From the NCBI GenBank assembly GCA_964364455.1, contig CAYIMR010000001.1, positions 2,403-66,402 of the forward strand: 64,000 bases of DNA, written 5' to 3'. Each line of letters opens with the position of its first letter. Position 1 is the stretch's first letter. This DNA comes from an uncultured Planctomycetales bacterium. GTDB taxonomy: Bacteria > Omnitrophota > Gorgyraeia > Zapsychrales > Zapsychraceae. Below, piece by piece: positions 7,001 to 20,500 of this stretch. A program made the position numbers and the translations under genes. Below the pieces are notes generated by a model. It was not told the DNA's origin and made no database searches. It saw only the letters and a list, made by a program, of their open reading frames with translations.

Positions 7001-10000
7001 TTGTTCCCTGTTCAAGCCTGTCCGTTTTTTCAAGGCCTCCGCCAACTGCGTATATTCCTCATAATTGGTATAGTAAAACCATTTGTCTCTTAGAAAATCA
7101 GCCATGTCCCGGCGCCCTGACCGTTCAGCCAGCGGAATATAAACTTCCAGGATTTCATAAAGGATCCGCTCGCGCCGTTCCCCGGACGCGCTGGAAAGTG
7201 CCTCTATCTTATCGGCGCAGGCCAACAACAGGACTTTGGCGTTCGCCGCTGTTGTAATAATCATTCCCATCTGGTTGCGCACGACTTCACTTCCCTTAAC
7301 CACCGCCGCGCGTTTCCACAGATCACCAAAGAATGTGTTGATATTTTTAAGTCTCGGCGGATTATATTCAAGATTGCGTAACTCTTTAAGCCCGTTGAGC
7401 AGATCCCAGAGAGCAGTACCTTGGAATTCGGCAATCCCTCGACGGCGAAGTCCTTCCATCTTCGCGGCCTCAAGCAGACTCAACCACGCCGCCGCGACGA
7501 CATCGGCGGACCCGCCAAATGCTTCGACGTGGTTTGCTCTATGTTCCGCGGATTTGTATAATTTTTCATCATATCCTTCCCGGGCAATTTTTTTGGCCTT
7601 TTGAACGATCGGTTCTTCGTTATTTTCATTGACCACCGGACTGCTGGAAGAAAGCTTATCCCCTGCCGGAGAACTCGCATCATCAAGCATCAATGTCTTG
7701 GCCAGTATTCTGAAGTATTCCTGCCGTCCCATGGTGTATTTGAACAGGGCCTCGACGCTTTCGGATGTTTTTTCCCAGCTATTATCCGACATCAGCGCGT
7801 GTGCCCTGAGCGTATCCCACTGATCGTTCTCATTTCTGGCTTTCCACGCGGCGTATAACCGGTCAAAGGCGAACATGATATAGTCCACCGTCCTGTCCAC
7901 TCTGTATTCATCGACAGGGAATCTCGCTCCGTTGAAATCAGGTTCATTGTCATTGATACGGGTGATCCGCGCGAGTTCCGGAACATAGATCGATCTTATC
8001 GTAGATTTATGTCCCTGTTTGTCCGATACCAGCCCGGGGACACCAAAGGCCAAAGCTTCCATAGGTGATATTCCGCCCGGTTCCCACATGGAGAAAGAAT
8101 TGTAGAAATCGCCGATCCCGTAAACGTGATAATAGAGAGGCTTTTGATTGGAAACAAAATCGTTGTTGTATCCAACTCTCCCGGGAAACTCATAGATCAA
8201 CGCGTTGAGTTGCCCCATGAGAAGAGGATCTCCCACCCCGGCAAAGACAAACGACACATCCGGATACCGGCCGCTATACATGACCCTGCGGACAAACGGC
8301 ACCACATACTGAATGCCTTTTTGATCCGTAATACGTGAGACCAGATTACCGACGAAATAATTTTCATTGATATATTCCGATCTGCCGCCGGAGGCCGGCC
8401 AGAATTGAGGATATTCTTCGGCCATGATTATCCTCGACTCGATCTGCTTCTTGCGCTGGATTTTGAGGAACTTCTGCAAATCCTCCGGCGTATGGACGTC
8501 GAACATGGTCATGCCGAAGCGACCGCGCTGACGCTCCCGCAACGGGATACCGTTGGTCACCGAGAATAATCTGCGCGCCTGTTTCTTTTCAATGAACACA
8601 TGACGGAAGCCTTCGGCGCCGCCTTTGTCATCGGTCTGCACATAGTCCCTCAATTGTCCGGGGCTTACCGGCACAATGATGCCGGCGTGCCGGATAAAGG
8701 CGTGCATGAAATTGATCAAATCACTCCTGTGAGGATCAATAAACCATCCGTAATCTTCCGGCGCCAATCCCAGATTGCCCAAAAGATCAACGCCATTCTG
8801 ATAGCGTCCCACCTTGAACTGATAATCCTGCCCGTTGTTATGGATCCATCCGATCGTGCGCGCTTGTGAAAAATGCGGATCTCGCTTATATAAAGACCTG
8901 TCGGAATTAAGATGGGCCATCAGCGGCGCCGTCATCCAGTCGTTCCCGATAATGATGCTCGGATGGATATTAAGCGCCTTCATCGCTTCCAAAGCTCCCA
9001 GGGAGAGGAAGGCGGCGCGCAACGACTCGTGTTCCTTGCTGGATTGTCCGTATAAAGCATCCGCGAAATATGGATTGTCCAGAAAAACATAATCCACATC
9101 TTCAAAATATTTTTCCGCTATGGATCCGGCGACATGCCCGTGCCGCCCTAAGAAGATTTGCGCGACCTTTCCGGTGTACTGGACGGTGGACTTATCAAGA
9201 TTCTGATACTGCGGTAAAACGACATATACCTTTAATCCTGACTTAGCTAATACCATCGCCAACTCTCCAACCACATTGGCCATGCCCCCGGCCTTAAAGT
9301 ACGGCACCGCCTCGGGCGAAACGAAAACCGCCGCCCCGACATCCATCCAGCGGCGGACTTTCTGGGCCGCCTCCCTTACCAATTCATCTTCCGTGCGTTT
9401 CGTCAGGCTCTCCAGCATCCTTTTCATTTTGTCCGCTTCTTTAGGATGTTTAACTGCCATATCATGCATGATCACCGTCAGATCCGTCGTATTAAGCTGG
9501 CCTCGGGTTGCCCGACTCTCGACGATACGCGCTAAATAGGAAAATCGTTCATGGAAAAAGGCATAACTGCGGTGCAGGACGGCTTTTTCAAGCCATCGAA
9601 ACGCGTTATTGACCTTGATCCTTCGCGGCCGATACTGCTCGCTGTAGCGCTTGAGCGCGTCCCGCAGCGCCCGGCCGCGGGCATTCGTCGTAAGACTTCC
9701 GACACCATCGCTTAAATCATCTTTAAGCCCACGGACCTTCCTGACCGCCAGCACGGCCGGCTGATAAGATCCCAGCGTCAATCTTATCCCTTCGGCCAGC
9801 AACTCTTTCCCCGTAAAGACTTCCTCTCTGCCGTTTTCCAGATCCGTTACCATATAGAATTGTTTTGAAGAAGACTCTATCTCCAATTGCTTTTGCAACG
9901 GCGCAAGATCGATACCGGCGAAAGCCGTCTCCCACCATTCGTTGATAACAAATATCAATTTCTCTTTTTTGTTAAACCGCGCGATGGCAAAGATACGGTC

Positions 10001-13000
10001 GTGATGTGTATTGATGAGATATTCATTGCCCGTATGCAAGGATCCATACCGGCGATACGTATTTAACGCGCGCTGATAAAATTGCTGGACCGTTTCCTTG
10101 TAAAGGTTCTCGAATTCCAGTTGAGCGTAATAGCGCTGCCGGTCGGCCTCCGCGTAATTATGCCAGGTATAGTTATCGATACGAACGCGATGCACCTCGC
10201 CTTCTTCCTGGCGGTTATAAATCATGATCGGCCCGCGGGTCGTGGCCAGCCAGGTCCATATCGCCGCCTTGAGCCGGCGCGGCCCGTAATGCTGCCATCT
10301 GTCCATCACGCGGAAGAAGTCATGCGTCTCCAGCGCCCCGACCATTTGCGATCCTTTTGGCAATTCATTCGACAACCACCGGAAATGTCCGTTTAATATC
10401 GTCTGCGTGCTGCCGCCTTCCATAATGACCTTCTGCAGATCCGAATACGTCCCTGTCTCCATCGGCATAACACCGGACTTAAGCAGTTGAATGTCCTTCC
10501 CGTAATTTTCACCCACAAAAATGAAATCGGGATAATCTTTGGTGATGTGGGAAACCAGATACACCAAAAGCGGATTGCCTTCGCCGCCATGCCAATGGTT
10601 AACGACCTTGAATCCACCGTCTTGTTTGCGCTCCCAGGAAGTGACGTGACCGAATAATTTCTGCTTGCCGTTCAATGATCTTTCGGCCGGCAGCATGACA
10701 CCGAAATGATGCGCCACGTCGATGCGTGCCCCTTTAATACCATTTTTGGCCAAGCGCCGGATCAGCGTTTCATAGGCGTATAACACCCGGATATCCCGCC
10801 AGTTGATCACCACCGAATCGTGCCATTCAACCGGAAGCCCGTCCTCGTGGTTAACACTGCCATCGGTCGCCAATCGCCGGATGATCTTACCGAAGGATCT
10901 GGCCTTGACGATCGACCATTCAGGCAGCTGCTTAAAGTTCTGGTTCACGTGGGGGATGAGGTCGACCAAAATTTCTATGCCGTATTTTTCTTTAGCCTTT
11001 TTCACGAGTCTGCTCAATCCTTCTTCACCGCCCAATTCCTTGCTGATATTAAATTCCAGCGGCGAGAATAGCGACGCGTCCGGGCCAACCTGACCGATAA
11101 TGTTTTCCGGCCGATCGAGCTGGTAAACGCCCATCACATAAACGTACGCGAACCCTTGCGCATGGAGATACGGCAGTTTCTCTTCGATCGTCTTGAATGT
11201 CCCGGGAATGGCCCTGCCGTTCTCATCGTGAATAATCTTGCCGTCTTCTCCGTAAACACCCAAATACGCCGGCCAGCCTTGATAGATCATCTTCCCTCTC
11301 AAGTCGGGCTGGGCAAAAATCGTCACATTGGCTTGATCATTTTCAACGTACTGCCAGTCCATGCGCCCGTTATCCTGCAGTTGAACGGCGAGGTGGATAA
11401 CTCCTTTACGCGCCCTGAGAACACGGCTGCCTTCCGAAAAACTTAACCGTATGGAATTGTCCGTCTCCGGCACCACATTCAGCTTCCGGTATCTTTTTTG
11501 CCCGGAATAATTCGTTGCCGTGACCAGCCGCGCGTTGAATGTCTTTAATCTTTTCTTGTTCTTGAAGGGATTAAATCCCGCGTCAATGACCATATCACTG
11601 AACTCGACCGCTTCTCCCAGCTTCGCCATGCGTGTCTCGTGGGCCGCGGGGAATTCTTGCGGCCGGCCGCTATATAAATTGTTCAGGATCTTCTGCGTCA
11701 TCACCTGAATGTGATCGTCCTCAACGCCCAGCGCCGCGTTCAAGATGCGTTTGGCTTCTTCTCCCGCTTTGGGATGATGGACAAGTCCTTCCAGCTGCCG
11801 CACGGCATCGACCATTCTCTGGTGGTCTCCGGAATTTAACTCGTAGACGATCTTGTAAAGGGCGGGATGATTTTGGTAGCGCGCGAGGTCTTCGCGCATA
11901 TCGGAGACTTCCCGGGGATCGGTGATGACATCAACGCGCTGGCCATGCCCGAAGAATGACCGGATGTGGCGCGTATCCGTCAGATAATCCACAAAATGAG
12001 CAGGGGCGATCCTGACGATGGCCTGCTCATCTTTGTTCCATTTGTAATAAAGGTCAATATGCTCATCTTCAAAAAAGACCTCTTTAAATTGTTCGATCCT
12101 TTTACCGACGGCCTTCGGTATGTCCGCCCGCGGCAGGATCTGGCGCAGGATCGTTTGGATACGCGCTCTTCTGTCCACGCCCCGGCGCGCGGTTCTTGCC
12201 TCATAAATTTTCCGTATTAATTTTCGTTCAGCCAACATACGCCAAAACTCGAGGAAAAGCTGTTGCTTGCGGTCCCGTTCCCGCGCGTCCGTGCTCTCAA
12301 TCGGGGAGGAGCTGCGGCTGGAGGCGGAGTCGGCTGAGGTGAGCTCTCGACGGCGAAGTCCTTCCATCTTCGCGGCCTCAAGCAGACTCAACCACGCCGC
12401 CGCGACGACATCGGCGGACCCGCCAAATGCTTCGACGTGGTTTGCTCTATGTTCCGCGGATTTGTATAATTTTTCATCATATCCTTCCCGGGCAATTTTT
12501 TTGGCCTTTTGAACGATCGGTTCTTCGTTATTTTCATTGACCACCGGACTGCTGGAAGAATCATTCTGCCTCTTTAAAATAAGCATGCCCAGCGGCGGAA
12601 GTGTGAGATTCAGCGAATAAGGCCGGCCGTGCGTGGAGACAGGTTGCGCCATAACACCGCCGGAGTTTCCGATGTTGCCACCGCCGTAAATGTCCGCGTC
12701 GCTATTGAGGATTTTCTGCCAATATCCGCCCTGCGGCACGCCGATACGGTAATCCTGCCGGAGCAGGGGTGTGAAGTTCATAACCACCACGACGTTGCCT
12801 TGAGGATTTCGACCCCGGCGTATGAAGCTGATTACACTTTGCTCCCAATCACTAAAATCGATCCACTCAAAACCATGCCCTTCGAAATCCACCTCATGAA
12901 GGGCGGACTCGCGGCGGTAGAGACCGTTGAGATCCCGCACCCATCTCTGCGTCCCTTGATGGCCGGGATAATTCCGAAGATGCCATTCAATTGCTGTATT

Positions 13001-16000
13001 CGCGTCCCACTCTTTCGCCTGCCCGAATTCCCCGCCCATAAACAACAACTTCTTGCCGGGCATGGTAAACTGCAGACCGAAAAGTAATCTCAAGTTGGCA
13101 AAGACCTGCCGCTCGTCGCCAGGCATTCTTTCTTTCAGCGAGCGCTTGCCGTGAACGACTTCATCATGCGAAAGCGGAAGAACAAAATTCTCGGTAGAAG
13201 CGTAGACCAGATAAAATGTCAAAAGATGCTGGTTGAATTTCCGATAAATGGGATCGAGCTTCATATATTCCAGGGTATCGTGCATCCAGCCCATGGACCA
13301 TTTCATCGAAAAGCCGAGACCACCCATATCCGCCGGGCGGGAGACCATCGGCCAGGAAGTCGATTCTTCGGCGATGGTCAAAATGCCCGGATATTGCCCA
13401 TGCGCAGCGATGTTGAAATCTTTCAGAAACGCGACGGCTTCGAGGTTCTCCCTTCCGCCATAAACGTTGGGAATCCATTCGCCGTCTTTACGCGAATAAT
13501 CGCGGTAGAGCATTGATGCCACCGCGTCCACCCGCAGGCCGTCGATATGATACTTCTCAAGCCAGAAGAGAGCGTTGGCGATCAGAAAACTGCGCACCTC
13601 ATGGCGGCTGTAATTAAAGGTGTTTGTGCCCCAGTCCGGATGATCCCGTTCGCGCGCGTCGCTGTAGGAGAAAAGATGCGTGCCGTCAAAATTGTAAAGC
13701 CCGACTTCATCCTTCGGGAAATGCGCCGGCACCCAATCAACAAGGACTCCAATGCCCTGCTGATGCAGATGATCCACCAGATACATGAAATCCTGCGGCG
13801 TGCCGTAACGCGACGTCGGGGCATAGAAATTGCTGACCTGATAACCCCAGGAAGGATAATAAAGATGTTCCGCGACAGGCATAAATTCAACGTGGGTAAA
13901 GTTCATGTCTTTGACATATTGGGCCAGACGCGGCGCGATCTCGCGATAAGTTAACCATCGGTTGTTCTCCCCGCGCAGCCAGGATCCGAGGTGAATTTCA
14001 TAAACGGAAACCGGCGCGTCCAAGGCCTGCTTTCGGGCGCGCTCACCCATCCACTGCGCGTCTTGCCATTCGTAGTCCAGACCCCAGATAATCGAAGCGT
14101 TACTGGCGGGCTGTTCGCTCGTCGGGAACTGATTAAATGAAGCGCAGGGATCAGATTTCATGCGCGTTATACCATCCGCGCCCTTCACGGCGAATTTATA
14201 AACCGTGCCCGCGCCGATATTCGGGACAAAGATAGCCCAGATACCGGCGTCCAGACGCCAGAGGCAATGCGCACCCTGATCCCATTCATTGAAATCACCG
14301 ACCAGAGAAATTGCCTGCGCGTTGGGCGCCCACACGGCAAAATACGTGCCGATCGTCCGGCCGTCGGCCTGAATCAGATGCGCCCCAAGCTTCTCATAAA
14401 TACGGTAATGCGTCCCTTGGCCGACCAAAAGTTGTCTGTCGAAATCACTTAAATGGAGCTTTTGAATCTCTTTTAGAACCGCCGGATAAGACAGTTCTAC
14501 AATCCTGTTCTCGCGCTCCACAGAGGCAAGGAAGTTATTCAATTCCCGTGGATGAACCGCGTAATAAACATACATGATTTCCAACGCCGAAACCGGACTG
14601 GAAGAGGCTTCCGCAATAATCACCCGGCCGTTTTTGCCGAATCTGCTCACTAAGTTTAAATTTTTGCGTGGGGCAGGATCACCGGTAATGAAGACTTCTT
14701 CCCGATCCGTTTGAATCATCCCGGCCACATAGGAATCATGGCGGATATTCCCGGTTTCTAACGGCCGCCCATTAACTTCTATATTCTTAAGAAGAGTCTG
14801 CATGGCCCGGAGTTCATCCATAGAACTAGTGTCATCGGACAATTTTCTCCCGATCTTTTGCGCTATGGAAGCCAACCAATTAAGACCTGTGCTTCCAACA
14901 CCCTTACCCTGCAATTTTGCATCGACAAAATGATTTAGCACCAAAATACTGTTTTTTGAGACGAAGAACTCAAGAACGCCGATGGGCACGGATTTCTCTC
15001 CCATGGAATAATTGTAGGCGTAATATTGCACTCCATCACAAGAGGGCCTCTTTGCGCCGCGGCCTTGGATGGTAATCTTTTTAATCGAAGAATCTCCTTC
15101 AATGTTGTCCAATACCATGCGCGCGGGCAAAATAACCAAGCCCTTCCCGCTTCCTTGTACCGGTGAAGAGGAATACTTCCGTTCTCCCTTGGCCTGGACT
15201 TCGGCGACAACGGCGCGCGCGGGTATGGATCGATCGAGCGGAATGTTGATGAAGATCGACTCTTCCGCCGGTTTGGCATGAACTTCTTTAAATCGCTGGA
15301 CAACGCCTTGTGCGGAGTCACCAGACACACTCCGGGCACCGAACAGACCTCTGGAACCTGACATTGTCAAAATCGATTCTTCACCAGGAATTGTGCCGAT
15401 CGCAGGCGGATCGCGGAAGCTTAACTTGTGGCCGCGTCTGTTTTCAGCGAGGAGATAATTCCCGCCGTACCCAAGATAGCCGGCAATAGCCAGCCGGACA
15501 GCGGATGCGTCATGATGAGCTGGATTATCGATGGCAAGCCAGAGACCATACCATTGACCATTGACCATTGACCATTGACCATAAACTGATACCGGGATCA
15601 CGGCCGGAGTCTGCGGCAACGCCGCCGGTACCGCCGGAACGTTCGTTGTTGTATGGGCGGCTTTGAAGCTGAATTTCTTGGCATTGACCGCCATCTGTCC
15701 GGCCATATCCGCGATTACCTTGAGATCTTTGACGGAAACGATCTTTGTGCCGGCTGTGTTATGAGCGCGGACATATTCCGCCCAGACAAGATCATTGACA
15801 TCAACAACAGGCGAAGAAGAAGAGGCGACCACCGCGCCGACGGGCGAATTCGTTATTTCGTCTTTCGTCTTTCGTCCTTCGTCCGTCATTTCCTGTTCAC
15901 TGTACCCTGTCCCTGCACCAAGGGATACCCTGTCCCCTGCATCCATTGCTTCCTTCAGACTCAAAACAACCAGACCCTTCTTCTTGCGCTTAGGCTGGGT

Positions 16001-16039
16001 CTTCGCCCATTCGTCATAGCGCGGAAACCACAACGCCAT
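1..16039 (-). CDS. Giant multidomain fusion ORF (ORF-L). The C-terminal part continues past window position 1. The start is provisionally the ATG at 16037-16039 (MALWFPRYDEWAKTQ...), but the true start could lie as far up as about 16200.
   Basis: Hand translation of the reverse strand gives continuous protein-like sequence with the recognisable domains listed below. No stops were met in the followed frame, but continuity between anchors was not exhaustively checked. Plus-strand ORFs over this span in the track (e.g. 12629..13087, 13547..13954) look like antisense artefacts. Confidence 0.45.
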   Translation of the reverse strand, partial: MALWFPRYDEWAKTQPKRKKKGLVVLSLKEAMDAGDRVSLGAGTGYSEQEMTDEGRKTKDEITNSPVGAVVASSSSPVVDVNDLVWAEYVRAHNTAGTKIVSVKDLKVIADMAGQMAVNAKKFSFKAAHTTTNVPAVPAALPQTPAVIPVSVYGQWSMVNGQWYGLWLAIDNPAHHDASAVRLAIAGYLGYGGNYLLAENRRGHKLSFRDPPAIGTIPGEESILTMSGSRGLFGARSVSGDSAQGVVQRFKEVHAKPAEESIFINIPLDRSIPARAVVAEVQAKGERKYSSSPVQGSGKGLVILPARMVLDNIEGDSSIKKITIQGRGAKRPSCDGVQYYAYNYSMGEKSVPIGVLEFFVSKNSILVLNHFVDAKLQGKGVGSTGLNWLASIAQKIGRKLSDDTSSMDELRAMQTLLKNIEVNGRPLETGNIRHDSYVAGMIQTDREEVFITGDPAPRKNLNLVSRFGKNGRVIIAEASSSPVSALEIMYVYYAVHPRELNNFLASVERENRIVELSYPAVLKEIQKLHLSDFDRQLLVGQGTHYRIYEKLGAHLIQADGRTIGTYFAVWAPNAQAISLVGDFNEWDQGAHCLWRLDAGIWAIFVPNIGAGTVYKFAVKGADGITRMKSDPCASFNQFPTSEQPASNASIIWGLDYEWQDAQWMGERARKQALDAPVSVYEIHLGSWLRGENNRWLTYREIAPRLAQYVKDMNFTHVEFMPVAEHLYYPSWGYQVSNFYAPTSRYGTPQDFMYLVDHLHQQGIGVLVDWVPAHFPKDEVGLYNFDGTHLFSYSDARERDHPDWGTNTFNYSRHEVRSFLIANALFWLEKYHIDGLRVDAVASMLYRDYSRKDGEWIPNVYGGRENLEAVAFLKDFNIAAHGQYPGILTIAEESTSWPMVSRPADMGGLGFSMKWSMGWMHDTLEYMKLDPIYRKFNQHLLTFYLVYASTENFVLPLSHDEVVHGKRSLKERMPGDERQVFANLRLLFGLQFTMPGKKLLFMGGEFGQAKEWDANTAIEWHLRNYPGHQGTQRWVRDLNGLYRRESALHEVDFEGHGFEWIDFSDWEQSVISFIRRGRNPQGNVVVVMNFTPLLRQDYRIGVPQGGYWQKILNSDADIYGGGNIGNSGGVMAQPVSTHGRPYSLNLTLPPLGMLILKRQNDSSSSPVVNENNEEPIVQKAKKIAREGYDEKLYKSAEHRANHVEAFGGSADVVAAAWLSLLEAAKMEGLRRRELTSADSASSRSSSPIESTDARERDRKQQLFLEFWRMLAERKLIRKIYEARTARRGVDRRARIQTILRQILPRADIPKAVGKRIEQFKEVFFEDEHIDLYYKWNKDEQAIVRIAPAHFVDYLTDTRHIRSFFGHGQRVDVITDPREVSDMREDLARYQNHPALYKIVYELNSGDHQRMVDAVRQLEGLVHHPKAGEEAKRILNAALGVEDDHIQVMTQKILNNLYSGRPQEFPAAHETRMAKLGEAVEFSDMVIDAGFNPFKNKKRLKTFNARLVTATNYSGQKRYRKLNVVPETDNSIRLSFSEGSRVLRARKGVIHLAVQLQDNGRMDWQYVENDQANVTIFAQPDLRGKMIYQGWPAYLGVYGEDGKIIHDENGRAIPGTFKTIEEKLPYLHAQGFAYVYVMGVYQLDRPENIIGQVGPDASLFSPLEFNISKELGGEEGLSRLVKKAKEKYGIEILVDLIPHVNQNFKQLPEWSIVKARSFGKIIRRLATDGSVNHEDGLPVEWHDSVVINWRDIRVLYAYETLIRRLAKNGIKGARIDVAHHFGVMLPAERSLNGKQKLFGHVTSWERKQDGGFKVVNHWHGGEGNPLLVYLVSHITKDYPDFIFVGENYGKDIQLLKSGVMPMETGTYSDLQKVIMEGGSTQTILNGHFRWLSNELPKGSQMVGALETHDFFRVMDRWQHYGPRRLKAAIWTWLATTRGPIMIYNRQEEGEVHRVRIDNYTWHNYAEADRQRYYAQLEFENLYKETVQQFYQRALNTYRRYGSLHTGNEYLINTHHDRIFAIARFNKKEKLIFVINEWWETAFAGIDLAPLQKQLEIESSSKQFYMVTDLENGREEVFTGKELLAEGIRLTLGSYQPAVLAVRKVRGLKDDLSDGVGSLTTNARGRALRDALKRYSEQYRPRRIKVNNAFRWLEKAVLHRSYAFFHERFSYLARIVESRATRGQLNTTDLTVIMHDMAVKHPKEADKMKRMLESLTKRTEDELVREAAQKVRRWMDVGAAVFVSPEAVPYFKAGGMANVVGELAMVLAKSGLKVYVVLPQYQNLDKSTVQYTGKVAQIFLGRHGHVAGSIAEKYFEDVDYVFLDNPYFADALYGQSSKEHESLRAAFLSLGALEAMKALNIHPSIIIGNDWMTAPLMAHLNSDRSLYKRDPHFSQARTIGWIHNNGQDYQFKVGRYQNGVDLLGNLGLAPEDYGWFIDPHRSDLINFMHAFIRHAGIIVPVSPGQLRDYVQTDDKGGAEGFRHVFIEKKQARRLFSVTNGIPLRERQRGRFGMTMFDVHTPEDLQKFLKIQRKKQIESRIIMAEEYPQFWPASGGRSEYINENYFVGNLVSRITDQKGIQYVVPFVRRVMYSGRYPDVSFVFAGVGDPLLMGQLNALIYEFPGRVGYNNDFVSNQKPLYYHVYGIGDFYNSFSMWEPGGISPMEALAFGVPGLVSDKQGHKSTIRSIYVPELARITRINDNEPDFNGARFPVDEYRVDRTVDYIMFAFDRLYAAWKARNENDQWDTLRAHALMSDNSWEKTSESVEALFKYTMGRQEYFRILAKTLMLDDASSPAGDKLSSSSPVVNENNEEPIVQKAKKIAREGYDEKLYKSAEHRANHVEAFGGSADVVAAAWLSLLEAAKMEGLRRRGIAEFQGTALWDLLNGLKELRNLEYNPPRLKNINTFFGDLWKRAAVVKGSEVVRNQMGMIITTAANAKVLLLACADKIEALSSASGERRERILYEILEVYIPLAERSGRRDMADFLRDKWFYYTNYEEYTQLAEALKKRTGLNREQSEEYLALELRNLIIYLKSSIPADKFYVTGRFKGPASIRNKMTRKGVALDDINDLFGFRLVILSEDKMLMGEVIGLIDQFVRMPGRHWMGAKPRNRIKGDHYEGVHIDYWDDSTRPFEIQIMTSANFDLYQYSTEAGGAHWIYNVSKEPTLSKQRFRNIPELKLSGNFAKDFEALQKLEKQWIYVTVNVNEGEFVPLRLPLNSISADIAAHRYIDLFNDQYAGVEAFVAVEREEGFEVTQKKWLSATEPVSNGLTVRVVSGKAVKSIDRHIISKVKTNRARLIIGMLGLGKREHAQVMEGIISCTDQFLGPMALDLGLKNARELLMAVELGIIAKDQIKERAIKIGGQMLKKRLTRLDFSLPDTRIMLERLLGTFPSFRLKSVEDLYALVGTKQIDAEVINERFSAGNLKVRLEGAVSDGRARLIVTGRYDWPGIFLDVAKIISEFGANLGDFDSDETKEVNIVLEVEGVTPEKINNIMEALGTIPDIKVPEPAFTRKMAQFIYSNRVPVSIERIPHKTGVLVNMLRALWDRDTRINVLSIKTRVEGKFATVALTLKHPEGISAEELKRIKEDLERAKYAMNGPSSSSPVSSSSPVNHLSEKLAGALAGMGVEEKRKLNDDAANNVNKMLMRIHYIHSLETYRQDFLDPLARKLDLADWNALYLAVALDLLSVQDIHREALIQGEEIVAQALSLENSQQLAKSDNFARLETLLLTFEKEHLKDVDSLIAAAGSKQITPEQIKARLPSDKRKIFVRTTKEFYDGEISLQIWARHDRPGMLRAVSREVKNLGGNIRFFTVYVDKEIPAELRANMKGFVKVVVDLTIRGIDAARALAIAQTLRTLPDADVTSVSKTWWLPKLLWTKIYREEFMVEIPDKVGQLSWLLDTIGRLDPQINVAKIFSGTSSNGKARITLVLESLHKIKRQDVALAFARASFMDEATGPVSLKLAEGTVERFVQEKLRGLPGYLFFGPDDFTGTGSLMPGLDREIFEIFYKIAQYHHSGQIRQGGAPYIAHPLGVLAMYVNRWAGRDLLVALGLPLHDAVEDSIRYFTNARNDKLPPEERRAQFTDKNKRPVSDEERREVLELIKTQIIDGLAAIGKDIHGLPFDLDRLMELVWVLTKKKDAADYLFEIVKFGPGAIIGKFVDRVSNLEDFEASITSEFIGKQFEGTIKDFIEAPIGDTGKSLLDNLPDEFQYFKLKFKRSLLISFLYSLHRLSGIDSMEKARETVRRIDPGIVIEGWNHPEEVFLQAVRALAERERQAAPDTASPPTSLGASSPILSPESHREQTQAGARKTDICSGSIRSVEDLRSYLMQGPFAVDATMEAFLDEIKDPRAQQALASGGLGFLAGETYGAYGQTGQRVVGLMPLYEHYVDHAGGGTYIGIDWDHTAGVGRLSVAEHKKEAFRFDVEFNGSMYNVRLYMVLTHGTPVLMIRQPEINYALYPEEPGKLRQMAFLGRTYVELFKQLGVAPDILRLNEPQLFFLVQAVENDIQYFENGYFRLRKEASIYRDTKVVLTTHTPEAAALPKYDSVSWLRMHVGEGLAPDYVIRDGSLDLARRLAENPRVAVINAVAQEHGEVTRLAVLPGAGEKTLAITNGSDPRLWKSGELMDLEGSGKGVRGIDLYEIGQHAKGKLNEYLLKTTGTAFRHIERPLAGLVRRLVEYKEQRILFGLIEYITGDRDKEYETPLGRKYGLEMNLLVGGVGRDTVGREWVRQFKALAKREDLEGKFIFVEGSGTEAMKLATQASDVWVSMPRSTREAAGTSDQRASFNGHPNIATDTGGPKEYVETGVNGWLMDVFKDSGYSFEEVVTLLQLPDHYREKQQIVEYYRKRSQELLAQYLTEVSQLYYAHQEHQDARWLAIMEASYRIGHEKVSIIRLVKQYGQMYEFVRGNLNISFEELAQRFKEIRLHEVEKHLRASSPVVGSAWLAAQLKSIKKVFERAKALNKAVDGVMVLLTTAMVIFVGLAGYALYHVFGWLTVLFVPVLAEIVIIIWLEVKAERRAKDENTTRKAAIDVIPVVHPAVLVQPTEPKNELLEWFKRNPWYYEYGQYGTKDPEVALERLLAQARTGDPKSLRTIGDTIVDYEIRRLPSVLAQFANDDALVKQLAQRAGADIPFSSDAPDRLDDFKALRALQQLHALPELVQLGRHATKSELAIEALQELEATEQLTTLASETPNAQDVIKIITWLAGRGDTASLRMLRQNAGLLIRLNQWFFGNLESDDTAIFDLLTMQGVPSAVLRERAQVIFQRQAEYISGTGWSLDGNTRFAVAYLAVLAILAGLPGLSEDSEIKELRSKIINQARLTAAPQKHSWMGGETNASFAFGREYFRN
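1000..1200 (-). other. Module: two predicted transmembrane helices
   Basis: Translation reads VDGVMVLLTTAMVIFVGLAGYALYHVFGWLTVLFVPVLAEIVIIIWLEVKAERR. Confidence 0.4.
1500..3100 (-). other. Module: GT35-family alpha-glucan (glycogen/maltodextrin) phosphorylase-like
   Basis: Motifs ASGGLGFLAGETYG (verified at 2941-3000), VVLTTHTPEAAALPKYD (verified at 2401-2460), and a C-terminal ...SMPRSTREAAGTSDQRASFNGHPNIATDTGGPKEYVETGVNGWLM (EASGTSGMK-like, Lys not conserved). Confidence 0.55.
3200..4100 (-). other. Module: HD-superfamily (RelA/SpoT-type) hydrolase domain
   Basis: HHSGQIRQGGAPYIAHPLGVLAMYV...LHDAVEDS verified against plus-strand 3901-4020. A downstream ...KFVDRVSNLED matches the ADRLHNMRT-like motif. 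Confidence 0.6.
4100..5230 (-). other. Module: two ACT-like regulatory domains
   Basis: ISLQIWARHDRPGMLRAVSREVKNLGGNIRFFTV and MVEIPDKVGQLSWLLDTIGRLDPQINVAKIF.... Confidence 0.4.
5250..7440 (-). other. Module: RelA/SpoT-homologue (RSH) block containing a (p)ppGpp-synthetase-like domain, a TGS-like domain and an ACT domain, preceded by an HD-like helical segment
   Basis: Synthetase motif EIQIMTSANFDLYQYSTEAGGAHWIYN verified at about 6560-6680, and GRFKGPASIRNKMTRKG upstream. TGS-like at about 6370-6470. ACT GRARLIVTGRYDWPGIFLDVAKIISEFGANL at about 5300-5560. KVLLLACADKIEAL...ILYEILEVYIPLAERSG at about 7300-7420. Confidence 0.55.
7438..7655. repeat. Exact 216-bp direct repeat, copy A. It lies inside ORF-L coding sequence and encodes ...RRRLGEMKAAELLSLWAAAVVDASGGFAEVHNARHEASKYLKEDYGERAIKKAKQVIPEENNENVVPSSSS on the minus strand (given C- to N-terminus, i.e. 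in plus-strand coordinate order).
   Basis: Base-for-base identical to 12344-12561 by direct comparison. The flanks diverge immediately on both sides. Confidence 0.85.
7700..9600 (-). other. Module: GT5/GT4 glycogen(starch)-synthase-like glycosyltransferase
   Basis: AAVFVSPEAVPYFKAGGMANVVGELAMVLAKSGLKVYVVLP and ...SMWEPGGISPMEALAFGVPGLVSDKQG, matching the KTGGLADV and SxFEPCGLxQ motif positions. Confidence 0.45.
9700..12290 (-). other. Module: GH13 alpha-amylase-family catalytic domain with an N-terminal extension (GlgE/amylosucrase-like)
   Basis: Region I ILVDLIPHVNQN verified at 10931-10965. Region II GARIDVAHHFG verified at 10693-10731. Region III FIFVGENYG. Region IV GALETHDFF. Confidence 0.55.
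12344..12561. repeat. Exact 216-bp direct repeat, copy B
   Basis: Identical to 7438-7655. The upstream context differs (ELTSADSASSRSSSPI...). Confidence 0.85.
12600..14580 (-). other. glgB: Module: 1,4-alpha-glucan branching enzyme (GlgB, GH13_9)-like
   Basis: YEKLGAHL, VWAPNAQAISLVGDFNEWD, VYEIHLGSW, LRVDAVASMLY, HDEVVHGK. ...PGILTIAEESTSWPMVSRP verified at 13321-13380. Confidence 0.6.
14620..15160 (-). other. Module: GNAT-type N-acetyltransferase-like
   Basis: VDAKLQGKGVGSTGLNWLASIAQKIGRK matches GNAT motif A. The module is flanked by SSSPVQ (verified at about 15165-15185) and SSSPVS (about 14590). Confidence 0.4.
15553..15585. repeat. Tandem repeat (CCATTGAC)x4 inside coding sequence. 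It encodes a Gly-Gln-Trp repeat (YGQWSMVNGQWYGLW).
   Basis: Directly visible: ccattgaccattgaccattgaccattgacca. Confidence 0.8.
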
Positions 16040-16287
16040 CTGGAATTCCTTATCGGACAACTTGATCTTGACGGAATTCAACGCGGCGGACGCGCGGCCG
16101 CTGAAGTAAGCCCAAGCATCAACTAGGCTCAATTGAATCTTACCGTCGAAGCCGGGCACCAGAACGATTTCGGCAATCTTGACAATCCTGAAAGGCGCGA
16201 CTATACTTGGGATGAATATGAAAGGATTCTTTACTAATCGCAGGCGTGAACTGGTCGGCAAAAGTTTTGTGACTACCGAGGAATAAA

Positions 16288-16380
16288 ATGTTTTTAGCAG
16301 GCCTATTAGCGGTAGCCGCCATAGCCGTGGTAATTGCCGTGTGGTTTGGAATCGATCAATACCGCGCCCATCACCACTAA
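16288..16380 (+). CDS. Small hydrophobic peptide 1 (30 aa): MFLAGLLAVAAIAVVIAVWFGIDQYRAHHH
   Basis: ATG 16288 is preceded by GAGGA 7 nt upstream. One predicted TM helix followed by DQYR and a His3 tail. Paralogous to the next two peptides. Confidence 0.5.
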   Translation: MFLAGLLAVAAIAVVIAVWFGIDQYRAHHH

Positions 16381-16437
16381 TCATTGCCCCTAAAGGCGCC
16401 GCCCCACCCGGTATTCTCGGTTGCCCGGAAAGGAGTG

Positions 16438-16539
16438 ATGAATAAAATGTTATTCGTACTGGTAACGTTCTTGATGATCGGCCTGGCTTTCTTGATCTGG
16501 ATTGCCATCGACCAATACCGCCTGAAACATCATCATTGA
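16438..16539 (+). CDS. Small hydrophobic peptide 2 (33 aa): MNKMLFVLVTFLMIGLAFLIWIAIDQYRLKHHH
   Basis: AAAGGAG Shine-Dalgarno 3-9 nt upstream of the ATG. Same TM helix plus IDQYR plus HHH pattern. Confidence 0.5.
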   Translation: MNKMLFVLVTFLMIGLAFLIWIAIDQYRLKHHH

Positions 16540-16741
16540 CCGGGTCTGCTTCGTCCCTCGCCCCTCGTCCCTCGTCCTTCATGGCCTCAAAATTCGGCGC
16601 GTTGGTCTTTCGGGCCAGATCTTCCTGAATGCCGCCCTGCGCCAAGACGCCCAAAGAAGCCGTTCGGATTGAGCCGAAGGTTAAGTTGACGAGAGACCGC
16701 GGATATGTTATAGCTACACTGTTAAATCGGGAGGTGGGATA

Positions 16742-16843
16742 ATGGGAATATATATTTTGCTCGGCGGGTTTCTTATCTTCGCGCTTATTATCGCCGAGAT
16801 CGTGATCCGTCAGGACAGGGGCCGCCATCATCACGGAGCTTGA
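16742..16843 (+). CDS. Small hydrophobic peptide 3 (33 aa): MGIYILLGGFLIFALIIAEIVIRQDRGRHHHGA
   Basis: GGGAGG upstream of the ATG. Third paralogue, with a more diverged tail (RQDRGRHHH). Confidence 0.45.
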   Translation: MGIYILLGGFLIFALIIAEIVIRQDRGRHHHGA

Positions 16844-16967
16844 TCCGCGCGATCCTTCTCCGATCGAGGCCTTCTGCGGCTTAAATATAATTCCGCCTTG
16901 ACCATATCTCTCAGACATGTTAGGATTTGACGATAATTTAGAGTAATCTTTAAAAGGAACAGAAAAG

Positions 16968-17207
16968 ATGAAACGATTAAAAGTCTTTAATAATGACCAA
17001 TGGCTGACTAAGCACTTTAAAGAATTAGTAGATAAATACGCTGGTGGATTCATTATCGCGGTTAACGGCAAGATCGTATATACCAACAAAGACGGCTCAC
17101 CGCGCGATTTAGGGAAACGCGTCAAAAGAGAATTCCCTGATGCTACGCCCTTGTTTTTCCGAGTCCCATATCCCCATGAATTTATATGCGCTCTAATCAT
17201 TCTATAA
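16968..17207 (+). CDS. DUF5678-like small protein
   Basis: In the ORF track: MKRLKVFNNDQWLTKHFKELVDKYAGGFIIAVNGKIVYTNKDGSPRDLGKRVKREF.... AAGGAACAG sits upstream of the ATG. From memory this family is typically paired with a retropepsin-like protease. Confidence 0.6.
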   Translation: MKRLKVFNNDQWLTKHFKELVDKYAGGFIIAVNGKIVYTNKDGSPRDLGKRVKREFPDATPLFFRVPYPHEFICALIIL

Positions 17208-17587
17208 AATTCCCCTACAAAACCTACAATAACATACCCTGTCCGATCATCACTCTTGATATCCGCAAAACGGCCATTGACGCCTATATCGATTCCGGAG
17301 CTTTCTACTCTATTTTCTCCATCAAGGAGGCTGAATGGCTCGGCATAGACTACACCAAAGGCAGGCAAGGCGGCGCTATGGTAGGGGACGGAAATATAAT
17401 TCCAGTATATTTTCATATCCTCCCTATAAGTATCGGCGGGATTTCCCTCAACGCCACGATAGGATTTTCCCCCAAACTTAATATCGGCTTCAACCTTTTG
17501 GGCAGAAAAGACATCTTCAACCGTTTTGTCATTATCTTCGATGACGCCAAAAGAAGTGTCACGTTGATTCCCCGCAAACACCAATAA
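17186..17587 (+). CDS. Retropepsin-like (retroviral-type) aspartic protease
   Basis: In the ORF track: ...IITLDIRKTAIDAYIDSGAFYSIF... carries the D-S-G-A catalytic motif. The ORF overlaps the DUF5678 ORF by 22 nt in a different frame, suggesting translational coupling. Confidence 0.65.
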   Translation: MRSNHSIKFPYKTYNNIPCPIITLDIRKTAIDAYIDSGAFYSIFSIKEAEWLGIDYTKGRQGGAMVGDGNIIPVYFHILPISIGGISLNATIGFSPKLNIGFNLLGRKDIFNRFVIIFDDAKRSVTLIPRKHQ

Positions 17588-17599
17588 TTCTTCAGCGCC

Positions 17600-20500
17600 G
17601 GCGAAACCTGCATTATTTCCATTCGGCGCGTTGGTCAGACGCTCCAAAGCTTCTTTATTACCAATTTGCGCCAAGACACCCAATTGCTTGGCCGCGACAT
17701 AAACGATCCCCGCCGCCGCGACGAATGTTCCGGCAACCGCGTACGCTCCAACGCCGATGGCCGCCGTCGCAACAGCCGCAACACCCAGGCCGAGCAGGGT
17801 TTCAATCGTACCGAAGCCGGATTGCCGGGGGTCAATAACTGGGCTGGAACTCTTGCCGAAATTGTTGCTCTTAGCAGAATTTTCCCTTTTTTGTTTCAGG
17901 GTTTTTAAGGTTTCTTCATCCATGCCCATCTCAAACGACGGGTCATCCACAGGGGGGGAGGTTTTCTTTTCTGTGCCGATAAGGCCCAGGACTCTTTGCA
18001 GGTTGTTTTTCCAATTTTCAACCGCCCCATCCACAACATCCTGAGAAACATTTTTTATCGTAAAGAAATCATCAATGTCCGCCATCTGCCCTAGGATATC
18101 TAAATTGCCGATCGACCCATGCTGACCTTGCAAAATACCGGCCTTGAGGATAGCGTCCAAATTCCGGAGGTAATTGCCTCGCAACAACGAGGCGTACGCA
18201 TCCGGCGGCATACCCAATTCAGCGACGACGCCCCTTAGGATTTCCGGCCGCCCTTTATCATACGCGTCGAAGAACAGCGACAAACGGCGGTAATCCCCGA
18301 CCGGCAGGCGCATGACCACCCCGTATCGGTCAAACAGCGGCAAAACGCCGATCGTGTGCCGCGTTAACCGCCCGCCGCGTGAAAGCACCCGGCGTTCCCT
18401 TTCCATCATCCGCGAGATGCCTTGCGGGGTTTCCAACCCGACAGGTGTCCCGGATTGAAGCTGATGTTCCCAATCAAGGAATATCCCCGGTTTGCCGACG
18501 TGTTCTTTAAAAACAGTCGGCTCAAAGGTATCATTGAGATTATGCTTCGCGTAGCCTGGCGTCCCGGCGCCTTTAAACTCCAGGCCAAAGGCTTTGTGTT
18601 CTTTAGTCCCTGAGCCTTTGAGTTCTTCCCCTCTCGTGACAATAGCCCCTTCCTTATTGACACGGATCACCGCCGGCACCGGCAATAAAATCGACCGCCC
18701 GGCGATGCCCAGCATCGGCATCGTAAATGGCCGTTGTTGGGCGTCCACAACCCTCTTGAGCCCGAATCTTTTATACATCTCCTCGTCATTTAAGGCTCGT
18801 ATATACCGGGCCTGATGTAATAACGGCGCGCCTTTTTCGATTTCATAAGCCGGGCCAGCCAAAAACACAAACGATCCATTTTCATTATCAAGGACCCCGC
18901 TGAACTCCTCCGGCAACTGAACACCGGCGGGAATATTCCACCTTGACCCTTTTTTAACATAAACGTCGGCATCCAGATGCAAGAACGGCCTGCCGTGTTT
19001 GTAATATTTCCGCCCTCCTGTTTCTGGATCTGTAAATATGCCGGCCGCCTGATTTGTCAGGGCCTCATCCCGATACCGCCCTGCCACCTTTTGAAGGCAC
19101 GACAACTTTTCAAGATCAAACACCGGGCTGGAGGACTTAGACTTTCGGGCAACAACGTAATAATCAGAGTCATTGAAAAGCTCTACGCTGTATCGCGCGA
19201 ATAATGGATGCATCATCCGGTGGATCCGTTCTTCTGTCTGGAAGAATGTCCTAAACCACCCTCGTTCGGCAAAATGCTTAACAACCGCCGGTGCCAACAG
19301 CCCCTTCCTCCATAACCCCTGCAGAATCAAGAAAGCGGAAACCTTGTAAACGCCCCTCACATAACCGTTCGTCCTTGTGTAATGGCTCCAGGCTTTCTCC
19401 CTGGCCAGGAAGTTGCCGATAAACGTGCCGCCCGGCGCCAGCCTCCCTGCCATCATGCCCACCGCTTTGTCTAAATCAGAAAGGTGGAATAACGTGTCAA
19501 GCGAAACAACAACATCCACACCGCTGATAAGCTGAAGGACCCTGGAATCATAAATATCCATATTTAAGACAGTCACCTTGCCGGCATTGGGGCCTTGGAT
19601 CCTCTGGCGCAACCGCACCAATGCCTCGGCGTTGACATCCACCGCGTATATCGCTTTCACATTTTCTAACGCCGCCACCTTTTTGGTGAGCCCGCCGGCG
19701 CCGGATCCAAAATCAGCGACAACCAGCTTATCCCCGGCTTTTCTCACCTCTTCCACGGTTCTGTCTTCAAGTTTTGTGTGCATGCTAAAAATACTCTTTT
19801 CCGGCGTCACATCAAAAACACGATGTCCTTTACGCTCAATCCAATGAAGAATAGTATGCTTCGGCAAATCCTTAACCGGACTGCTGGTTACAGACACCTC
19901 TTTGATTAATTGAGCAAGTTTCTCCTTAACTTGAGAATCAGAAGCTGCCGGCGGATGAATATGGTCTATTTCCTCTTGGAGCAGGATAGTATACCCTGAC
20001 ATCTCGTTAACACCATAACCGCCTAGCATCTCATCGGGTTTCCTCTTGGACCTCGGGAATAAATGCGCACGCACCTGTCCATTCCCGATATCGACCCATT
20101 TGATATCGATCATGTTTTCCGTAATTCCACCGGAGAGCAATTGTTTAATCTTCTTGCTGGCATTATAGATAACCTCTCCCATCATGCCGCTGTAGACAAA
20201 ATTCACCGCAGGCCAATTAGGTACCTGCTGGCCGGCCTCAGAAACTAAGTCGACAACCTCCCTTTTATCAATGGGGAAGCGCCCTAAGAACCCTTGGAAA
20301 TGGGCATGATGTTTAATAGAACGCCCGGGGCCGTTCCAGTAAATGGTAGCATGAGGCATCACCACGGCAAGAAGCGCGCCAAGGCCCATAACCTTATTTA
20401 ATGATGGCTGAATGCCGTGTTTCCGATAGGCGATTACAAAACTCGGCGTTTTCCTTGCCTCATCTGTCCCCCAGAAAAATGGATTGATATACATTGCCCA

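Follow-up and report, generated by a model that had tools for sequence, protein, structure and literature searches.

A retropepsin-like protease and its DUF5678 partner nested antisense within a giant open reading frame: a candidate toxin-antitoxin-like cassette in Omnitrophota-type genomes

The stretch of DNA analysed here (the window; 64,000 nucleotides (nt) of contig CAYIMR010000001.1, assembly GCA_964364455.1, from an uncultured Planctomycetales bacterium assigned to Omnitrophota by GTDB) carries two small overlapping genes on its plus strand, which are predicted to encode a DUF5678-family protein (ORF1) and a retropepsin-like aspartic protease (ORF2). An initial annotation placed this pair between two giant polyprotein-like open reading frames (ORFs) with a recurrent SSSPV linker, and proposed that the protease is dedicated to processing them. 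The boundaries of both small genes and their 22-nt overlap, as first annotated, are upheld, while the surroundings are different: the pair lies antisense inside one uninterrupted giant ORF. The main features of the locus are as follows.

Positions 2 to 64000, minus strand: a single frame without stops, longer than 21,333 codons and running off the window at either end, with the pair antisense inside it.
Positions 16100 to 17620: an island of sequence unlike the giant gene, in which the recognisable genes are all on the plus strand.
Positions 16968 to 17207, plus strand: ORF1, a DUF5678-family small protein of 79 amino acids (aa), the upstream partner, with a conserved C-terminal tail ending in ...RVPYPHEFICAL.
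Positions 17186 to 17207, plus strand: the overlap of ORF1 and ORF2, 22 nt.
Positions 17186 to 17587, plus strand: ORF2, a standalone retropepsin-like aspartic protease of 133 aa.
Positions 17291 to 17302, plus strand: codons of the putative catalytic motif D36-S37-G38-A39, as read from the sequence.

Over the whole 64,000 nt, the minus-strand frame that carries the SSSPV motif contains no stop codon, against 948 and 1358 in the other two minus-strand frames. The same holds across the island at 16100-17620, with 0 stops in the giant frame and 35 and 38 in the other two, an outcome with a chance probability of about 6e-13 that was matched in 0 of 20,000 shuffles. The frame reads through the antisense of both small genes and through 870 nt to the left of the pair, and it scores best for coding in 634 of 637 sliding windows. 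As no ORF ends near 17590, the description of the pair as lying between giant ORFs and converging with the end of one of them (ORF-R) has to be withdrawn in favour of antisense nesting. An alternative genetic code was ruled out as the cause of the open frame, which is without any of the three stop codons.

Pfam domains in the giant frame include GlgA (two copies), GlgB (CBM_48/Alpha-amylase), methyltransferases, RelA/SpoT with ACT, SLT, M23, GH2, radical SAM, GFO_IDH and UDPGP, with GT1 also named among the domains that tile the ORF, and 34 hydrophobic segments are present. In size class, enzyme-domain tiling and transmembrane (TM) segments, the host ORF matches the giant genes reported from Omnitrophota, and it belongs to their 'multi-enzyme metabolic' or Archaeovorin class, in which proteins reach 85,804 and 147,155 aa (bioRxiv 10.1101/2023.11.21.568195; bioRxiv 10.64898/2026.06.07.730766). 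This ORF holds antisense-nested genes; word searches of the text of both papers returned no mention of antisense or nested genes, or of toxin-antitoxin (TA) modules, in giant ORFs. The window itself contains no marker gene; its closest relatives, in both protease and locus, are found in metagenome-assembled genomes (MAGs) labelled Omnitrophota or 'uncultured Planctomycetales'.

Across the island the giant frame stays open, yet the sequence there is unlike giant-gene coding. Codon log-odds of the giant frame drop to between -0.23 and 0.01 at 16200-17200, the worst values in the window (mean 0.21, standard deviation 0.08), and the guanine-plus-cytosine fraction falls to 0.35-0.46, indicating that the open frame is not reading giant-gene-like sequence at this point. 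Peptides encoded by the read-through segment include INSWGYGTR and NKGVASGNSLLTR. Neither Rfam nor a tRNA scan gave any match in the island.

The identification of ORF2 as a D-S-G-A protease of retropepsin fold is upheld by Pfam profiles, by a 30-sequence alignment, and by comparison of an AlphaFold2 model with known structures through Foldseek. Against Pfam, ORF2 scores 24.5 bits on PF13650 Asp_protease_2 (cut-off 24.3), 25.4 bits on PF13975 gag-asp_proteas (E=2.1e-5, cut-off 28.2) and 21.5 bits on PF09668 Asp_protease (E=2.7e-4, cut-off 26), and many of its homologues carry precomputed PF13650 or PF13975 matches. A word-index search of a protein collection returned 167 homologues, nearly all of 125-140 aa, and a profile search returned 2,548 cluster representatives at E<=1e-3, including 593 at E<=1e-10. 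Each of the best 150 representatives is no longer than 163 aa and none is fused to a larger protein, consistent with a family of standalone single-domain proteins. D36, S37, G38, A39 and the segment L98..G101-F-N-L..G106-R107 are invariant in the alignment, and DSGA is kept in 75 of 82 locus copies, the remainder being DTGA or truncated; loss of the catalytic aspartate, which had been named as a finding that would speak against the initial reading, is thus not seen. The model has a mean predicted local distance difference test (pLDDT) score of 81.8, and its top PDB matches are all retropepsin- or pepsin-type, led by APRc of Rickettsia conorii (5c9f, template modelling score 0.58; 5c9d, 0.61; probability 1.0, E only about 1e-3), with Ddi1 RVP domains and HIV protease also among them. 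The Ddi1 RVP domain is likewise matched by the sequence profile of ORF2 against the PDB (E=1e-4). By these comparisons, ORF2 is confirmed as a predicted retropepsin-fold protease with a conserved catalytic aspartate, and it is probably active as a homodimer.

Features common to ORF2, APRc, the Ddi1 RVP domain and retroviral proteases are a length of about 130 aa, a single beta-rich lobe, D-S/T-G-A, and a later G-R-x-D. Identity to these relatives is only 17-20%, in line with the weak Foldseek E value. In addition, APRc has a membrane anchor and Ddi1 has UBL/UBA domains, neither of which is present in ORF2, and the ORF2 family differs from all three in being paired with a DUF5678 gene.

The assignment of ORF1 to DUF5678 held for the family as a whole, while ORF1 alone scores below the Pfam cut-off for PF18929 (17.4 bits, E=0.004, cut-off 23.2). 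Homologous partners upstream of other ORF2 homologues score 27.4, 30.1, 41.2 and 49.7 bits on this profile, and they are linked to ORF1 by tblastn with E values of 1e-9 to 1e-26; one close homologue also has a precomputed PF18929 match. Since these partners score well, ORF1 is considered a divergent DUF5678 member by transitive homology. The C-terminal tail of the partner is conserved, with the consensus ..(R/I)VP(R/Y)P(E/H)(D/E)F.CAL, and in the AlphaFold2 model of ORF1 (pLDDT 84.6) it is flexible and of low confidence. A profile search of DUF5678 against PDB sequences gave no significant match. Overlaps between the two genes across the family measure 4, 13, 19 or 22 nt, each of them 1 mod 3. 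The relative frame of the DUF5678 and protease genes is thus conserved, which suggests translational coupling.

The distribution of the pair was examined in a genome scan with one genome per species, which found 130 protease loci, of which 80 were fetched (labelled L001 onwards). These 80 loci span Omnitrophota, Desulfobacterota ('Deltaproteobacteria'), Nitrospirota, Chloroflexota, Binatia, KSB1, WOR-3, Bipolaricaulota, Desantisbacteria, Saccharibacteria and archaeal MAGs. In Desulfobacterota, Nitrospirota, Chloroflexota, Binatia, KSB1, WOR-3, Bipolaricaulota and the archaeal MAGs, the pair is present with no giant ORF at the locus. By tblastn, about 64 of the 80 loci have an ORF1 homologue of about 70 aa immediately before the protease gene, and in several of the remaining loci an ORF of about 70 aa of an uncharacterised type occupies the DUF5678 position. 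Several MAGs contain two or three diverged copies of the pair (for example JAHJHM01, with L002, L020 and L045), and MAGs with different phylum labels share near-identical DUF5678 sequences. The pair is therefore a conserved two-gene module that is independent of giant ORFs. Whether it would be widespread in genomes lacking giant ORFs had been posed as a test of its link to them, and the outcome is divided: the pair is common without giant ORFs, but in Omnitrophota its positional association with them is strong.

One clade within this set (L023, L026-L030, L033, L036, L040, L047, L055, L056, L058 and L059) shares near-identical DUF5678 sequences (MDKDDLWIVEHFSELV...), in MAGs labelled Binatia, Syntrophobacter, Nitrospirae and Deltaproteobacteria. 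Where the flanks could be scanned, they often hold opposite-strand ABC_sub_bind genes (13 of 107 neighbour ORFs), and 11 of the 14 loci already have an antisense frame with no stop over about 600-800 nt. This pattern suggests recent horizontal spread or mis-binning, and possibly a state pre-adapted for nesting.

Among the 28 loci labelled Omnitrophota, Omnitrophica or 'uncultured Planctomycetales', 21 have the pair antisense within a frame that stays stop-free for 2 to more than 20 kb and that often takes up the entire contig. No such nesting occurs in the other phyla: over the pair, antisense frames in those 52 loci stay open for at most 1.07 kb. Without exception, nesting is in the frame codon-aligned with the protease. 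Apart from the window's own copy, the nested proteases are 41-68% identical to it, and full-length nested copies retain DSGA or DTGA together with GFNL[LI]G. The nested protease of L012 (9947-10396) has an in-frame stop (..KGPKG-stop-IVPE..), and may be a pseudogene or reflect a sequencing error.

In the protease-aligned frame, the only sense codons that yield antisense stops are TTA, CTA and TCA. These codons are absent from 17 nested proteases (0 observed, about 75 expected from flanking codon usage), with per-locus probabilities of zero occurrences between 3e-4 and 0.09, while distant non-nested copies use them at or above expectation. The flank-based expectation replaced a within-gene synonymous shuffle, which is uninformative for the codon-aligned frame because absent codons cannot arise in it. 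As the nested proteases avoid the codons that would interrupt the opposite strand, this is direct evidence that selection acts on both strands of nested cassettes.

The nested pair carries its own expression signals and is often bounded by direct repeats of host sequence. In the window, these elements are the following.

Positions 16898 to 16926, plus strand: a sigma-70-like promoter upstream of ORF1, TTGACC-17-TAGGAT with an extended TG.
Positions 16592 to 16654: left copy of a direct repeat, 63 nt, of giant-ORF sequence (LGVLAQ..TNAPN in the giant frame).
Positions 17621 to 17683: right copy of the repeat, beginning 34 nt past the protease stop codon.

An AGGAA Shine-Dalgarno-like site precedes the ORF1 start codon (ATG). 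Nested cassettes elsewhere have similar promoters upstream of the DUF5678 gene (TTGACT-17-TATATT in L014 and L017; TTGACA-17-TATACT in L041), and L005, L014, L017 and L041 together show the form TTGAC(A/T)-17-TATA(T/C/G)T with AGGAGG sites. The two repeat copies in the window are 75% identical at a spacing of 1029 nt (343 codons), and the 16-mer ATTCGGCGCGTTGGTC of the left copy occurs three times in L001 and once in L035, at the same hotspot. Flanking repeats were also found in L005 (87 nt, 95% identical, spacing 876 nt), L014 (92-102 nt, 94-97%, spacing 831 nt), L017 (47 nt, spacing 819 nt), L018 (68 nt, spacing 945 nt), L019 (16 nt, spacing 750 nt) and L013 (19 nt, spacing 789 nt). They consist of host giant-ORF sequence, different at each locus, and the spacing is a multiple of three in the window and in these six loci, and not so in L041 and L049. 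An integron cassette with attC-like hairpins was considered and rejected: the repeats do not fold consistently better than shuffled sequences (z scores of 0.29 and -2.36, one copy no better and the other marginally so), the cassettes have promoters of their own, and the window showed no integrase. An empty site was sought as well; this search, using the hypothetical cassette-less giant-protein segment of L005, found no homologue at all in the protein collection and is hence uninformative.

Comparison with related contigs reveals that the site in the window is a variable hotspot. The unclassified metagenomic contig of L001 (ENA ERZ1286166 contig_6208) is 99% identical to the window over the pair and its right flank, and 87% on the left; over a longer range (L001 1-20240 against window 5226-19134) the relationship is a mosaic, with segments of 99.1-99.6% identity interleaved with segments of 87-88%. 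L001 has an extra 2.5 kb after the protease, with a DUF4258/DUF2283 pair about 900 nt downstream, and it is without the sequence at window 7652-12346. In the window and in L001, the hotspot holds the same pair (pair A), while L035 carries a different one (pair B, with a protease 41% identical) at a neighbouring position, and about 230 nt fill the pair A slot. Because L001 and L035 hold different content at the hotspot, cassettes are gained and lost there as units. Nesting, the open frame, the dual constraint, the promoter and this variation at the level of the cassette are all well supported.

The pair is not alone in being nested in this manner. From the same pair-bearing giant frames, 85 antisense ORFs with a preceding Shine-Dalgarno site were collected, and the Pfam families matched among them comprise only DUF2283 (3), DUF433 (3), HicB-like (3), PIN (2) and HicA (2), as well as CopG antitoxin, NTP_transf_2/Polbeta, AF2212-like and UPF0150, together with two uncharacterised DUFs. 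Most of the matched families are recognised TA families. Matched families other than recognised TA families are small proteins which we take to be TA partners or DUFs. The clearest cases are listed here.

L012, 3351-3790, antisense in the giant frame: HicB-HicA, 74 bits.
L041, 5381-5808, antisense in the giant frame, directly after the pair: HicB-HicA.
L002, 9291-9791: PIN toxin with an upstream small ORF, in a unit spanning 9128-9791.
L013, 6020-6439: PIN toxin with an upstream small ORF, in a unit spanning 5797-6439.
L005, 10920-11246, antisense in the giant frame: MNT-type nucleotidyltransferase.

Given that TA families are nested in the same way, nesting in itself implies no functional link to the giant protein. 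Type II TA systems such as HicAB, VapBC/PIN, HEPN-MNT and DUF4258/DUF2283 share with the pair an arrangement of two small, co-directional, overlapping genes with their own promoter and the small partner first. They also share the occurrence of several copies per genome, the patchy distribution, and residence in the same giant frames and hotspots. A DNA-binding antitoxin fold, of the kind that serves type II antitoxins in autoregulation, is not seen in the DUF5678 protein of the pair. To our knowledge, there is no established TA system with a retropepsin-like protease as the toxin, and a literature search on retropepsins in combination with toxin-antitoxin found nothing relevant.

The SSSPV motif, to which the initial annotation had tied the protease, is real and strongly enriched in the giant frame of the window. 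The motif [AST]SSP[VIL] occurs 30 times, against 0.14 expected, with SSSPV accounting for 17. There are 27 SSPV sites, among them those whose first codons lie at plus-strand coordinates 63049, 61243, 60232, 27418, 24583, 19135, 17851, 15820, 15172, 14605, 12556, 7648 and 5248. The sites lie between enzyme modules, and the motif is encoded by many synonymous codon combinations, which indicates that it is selected at the protein level. The island falls within a single SSSPV-to-SSSPV segment of 677 codons, delimited by the two nearest copies:

Positions 17837 to 17851, minus strand: nearest upstream SSSPV in the giant frame, followed by a hydrophobic hairpin at 17806-17680.
Positions 15806 to 15820, minus strand: nearest downstream SSSPV in the giant frame.

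Elsewhere, motifs of this type are strong in L012 and L041, and variants occur as SSPI (L006), SSAV (L017) and ASPV (L045), while 12 of the 21 pair-bearing giant frames at other loci do not contain [AST]SSP[VIL]. A literature search on SSSPV found nothing relevant. The SSPV-type motif is a candidate cleavage or modification site, and FGKSSSPVIDPR is an example of a peptide considered as a candidate protease substrate.

Taken together, the arrangement is read here, with a confidence somewhat better than even, as a self-contained TA-like cassette of two genes, tolerated on the antisense strand of giant-ORF linker regions and maintained there without stops. The cassette consists of its own promoter, a DUF5678 gene and a translationally coupled gene for a retropepsin-like protease, and its family has a patchy distribution over many phyla of bacteria and in some MAGs of archaea. 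Omnitrophota-type genomes carry it antisense in giant-ORF linker regions, where its sequence is kept free of antisense stops, the giant ORF reads through, and both strands are under selection. The protease, as a homodimer, would be the effector of a type II TA-like or addiction module, and the DUF5678 protein its neutralising partner, possibly acting via the conserved flexible C-terminal tail. Architecture, distribution and association are the grounds for the proposed toxin and antitoxin roles; a tail-in-cleft inhibition and an insertional origin are likewise inferred.

Several observations weigh against this reading. No protease match was found on plasmids or phages (tblastn) or on IMG/VR contigs (profile scan), and neighbours outside Omnitrophota are mostly housekeeping genes, with no enrichment of TA or mobile genes and only ABC_sub_bind in one clade. 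PADLOC gave 0 hits for ORF1 and ORF2 and NCBIfam only noise, no database entry labels the pair as TA or defence, and the literature search found no paper on DUF5678 in such a role. The DUF5678 model has no fold match in the PDB, and shows no antitoxin-like fold or recognisable DNA-binding domain. The cassette contains no recombinase, its long and variable flanking repeats match no standard transposition mechanism, and the flanking repeat in the window belongs to a repeated giant-gene module and may not be a target duplication. In L001 the giant frame is broken in the island and split into several ORFs in different frames, with four indels clustered within 325 nt (13227-13552), which means either that the assembly contains indel errors or that continuity is not essential here. 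Lastly, a functional link could still underlie the strong positional association with giant ORFs.

Such a link is the essence of the view that the protease is a trans-acting maturation enzyme, which cuts SSSPV-type linkers and is co-inherited with its substrate by nesting. It draws on the physical association in Omnitrophota-type loci (21 of 28), the conserved catalytic motif, the enrichment and amino-acid conservation of motifs that bracket the modules, and the position of an SSSPV-type motif directly before the cassette in L006 and L045. It would also fill a gap, as information on the cleavage points of giant Omnitrophota proteins is stated to be lacking (bioRxiv 10.1101/2023.11.21.568195). 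However, the module is common in phyla that lack giant ORFs (none is present at the 52 loci of other phyla), 12 of the 21 nested giant frames in other loci are without the motif, and the motif variants are lineage-specific while the protease is conserved, so that the co-occurrence needed by the processing hypothesis is gone. The pair is moreover encoded antisense, with its own promoter and insertion-like flanking repeats, canonical TA cassettes are nested likewise, the best 150 relatives are unfused, and the DUF5678 partner is left unexplained. The likeness to viral polyprotein maturation (retroviral PR, picornaviral 3C) extends to a small protease beside a multi-domain ORF with a recurrent short linker. 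Viral enzymes are encoded by the polyprotein ORF itself and hence on its strand, whereas ORF2 is a separate antisense gene with a partner, whose family occurs in most phyla without a polyprotein and does not co-occur with the motif. Serine at P1 is also atypical for retropepsins. Cleavage of the giant protein by the ORF2 protease is accordingly unsupported, and the dedicated role first proposed for it is quite improbable.

Other alternatives accept the cassette and differ as to its origin or its function. The pair may have been engulfed rather than inserted, an intergenic pair being swallowed when its two co-directional neighbours fused through the loss of stop codons, in which case the flanking repeats would be giant-gene module repeats and not target duplications. 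The 'MDKDDLW' clade, with its pair antisense between two tandem ABC_sub_bind genes and an antisense frame open for 600-800 nt, offers a plausible pre-adapted state. The module to which the window repeat (LGVLAQ..TNAPN) belongs is found again in L001, and the island of L001 separates distinct ORFs. Near-identical repeats of 87-102 nt, however, tightly bracket a unit of 830-880 nt in L005 and L014 and differ by locus, the presence of the cassette varies at neighbouring positions of one hotspot, and three diverged copies in one MAG are all nested; engulfment, which concerns the origin only, is unlikely on this evidence. It is also doubtful, if a little less so, that the pair is a non-TA proteolytic system with a regulatory or housekeeping task, in which DUF5678 would be a substrate, a pro-peptide-like activator or an adaptor, and nesting a neutral by-product of mobility. 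APRc and similar bacterial retropepsin-like enzymes process specific substrates and are not known to act as toxins, and the partner without antitoxin-like fold or DNA-binding domain, the housekeeping neighbours outside Omnitrophota and the lack of PADLOC hits would all suit such a system. The multiple diverged copies per genome, the patchy spread across phyla with near-identical copies under different phylum labels, and the TA association of the identifiable co-nested genes do not, as these traits are typical of addiction or selfish modules. That both plus-strand ORFs are mere shadows of the giant gene can be practically dismissed. Long shadow ORFs without Pfam matches do exist on the plus strand at 37.8-50.3 kb, but ORF1 and ORF2 have large homologous families in genomes without giant ORFs, invariant catalytic residues and a confident retropepsin-like model, and the codon statistics of the giant frame are worst exactly at the pair.

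In addition to the pair, the island contains three small peptide genes, antisense-nested in the giant frame, each with a strong Shine-Dalgarno site and without Pfam matches.

Positions 16742 to 16843, plus strand: a small hydrophobic peptide of 33 aa, MGIYILLGGFLIFALIIAEIVIRQDRGRHHHGA, with a strong Shine-Dalgarno site GGGAGGTGGGATAATG, inside the repeat-bounded unit.
Positions 16288 to 16380, plus strand: a paralogous small TM peptide of 30 aa, ...GIDQYRAHHH, with a Shine-Dalgarno site.
Positions 16179 to 16207: a promoter-like site (11 of 12 matches) before the gene at 16288-16380.
Positions 16446 to 16539, plus strand: a paralogous small TM peptide of 30 aa, ...AIDQYRLKHHH, with an AGGAG Shine-Dalgarno site; repeats D3/D5.

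The 33-aa peptide ends in ..RQDRGRHHHGA and the other two in ..IDQYRxxHHH. A homologue of the gene at 16742-16843 is found in L035 (1812-1913), adjoining a different variant of the pair. These look like small membrane peptides of the type I toxin kind, for which the giant mRNA would be a natural antisense RNA.

A broader and more speculative proposal, to which we give limited credence, is that Omnitrophota giant genes are landing pads for a guild of in-frame antisense TA-type cassettes, of which the DUF5678-protease pair would be a new member, and that the arrangement may itself be functional. Such cassettes would be purged of antisense stops and inserted in units that are multiples of three, with long duplications of host sequence. 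If this were true, nested addiction modules could protect a huge, repeat-rich and costly gene from internal deletion. Alternatively, the giant mRNA, as an antisense RNA, and convergent transcription might restrain the cassettes and the small peptides, making the cell dependent on transcription of the giant gene. A parallel exists in the Rickettsia palindromic elements (RPEs), in-frame insertions in coding genes that were reportedly described by Ogata and colleagues in Science in 2000. In both cases, repeated foreign DNA is tolerated in ORFs, the frame is kept open, and the insert is translated in the host protein. RPEs differ in being non-coding palindromes of about 100-150 bp, whereas the cassette here measures 0.75-1 kb and comprises a promoter and two opposite-strand genes.

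These results correct the picture of the locus to one giant ORF rather than two, with the protease as a passenger rather than an obvious maturation enzyme. They also indicate that functional genes can nest antisense in bacterial giant ORFs with measurable selection on two strands, an arrangement of which no description was found in the searchable literature. Standard gene callers generally omit genes that are fully nested on the opposite strand of a longer gene, so that nested cassettes are probably missing from the annotations of giant-gene genomes. For the giant protein, the arrangement implies the translation of several hundred codons of effectively arbitrary sequence, which bears on the question of whether it persists as one chain or is cut. 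Beyond giant genes, DUF5678 and the retropepsin-like protease form a widespread uncharacterised two-gene system (the 593 clusters at E<=1e-10), potentially a new type of TA or defence system.

Some further observations concern other parts of the giant ORF. The plus-strand ORFs at 37.8-50.3 kb (up to 432 aa, in one plus frame) look like shadows of the giant frame. Poor giant-frame codon statistics also occur at 54300-54830, 30887-31148, 55613-55868 and 28501-28800, and the stretch at 53.6-55.9 kb yielded no convincing nested gene. The sequence SSSSPVVNENNEEPIVQKAKKIAREGYDEKLYKSAEHRANHVEAFGGSADVVAAAWLSLLEAAKMEGLRRR is present twice on the minus strand (window 12556 and 7648), 4.9 kb apart and each time ahead of a starch-synthase module, a sign of internal segmental duplication in the giant gene. 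A purine-rich motif, GAAGGACGAGGGACGAGG, encoding (M)KDEGRG, occurs on the minus strand at 16576, 15883, 54418, 54397 and 53314, lying 10-40 codons upstream of SSPV sites and often adjoining an in-frame ATG. This motif resembles a stacked Shine-Dalgarno-like sequence, and it could mark internal translation starts, or former gene starts, within the giant ORF.

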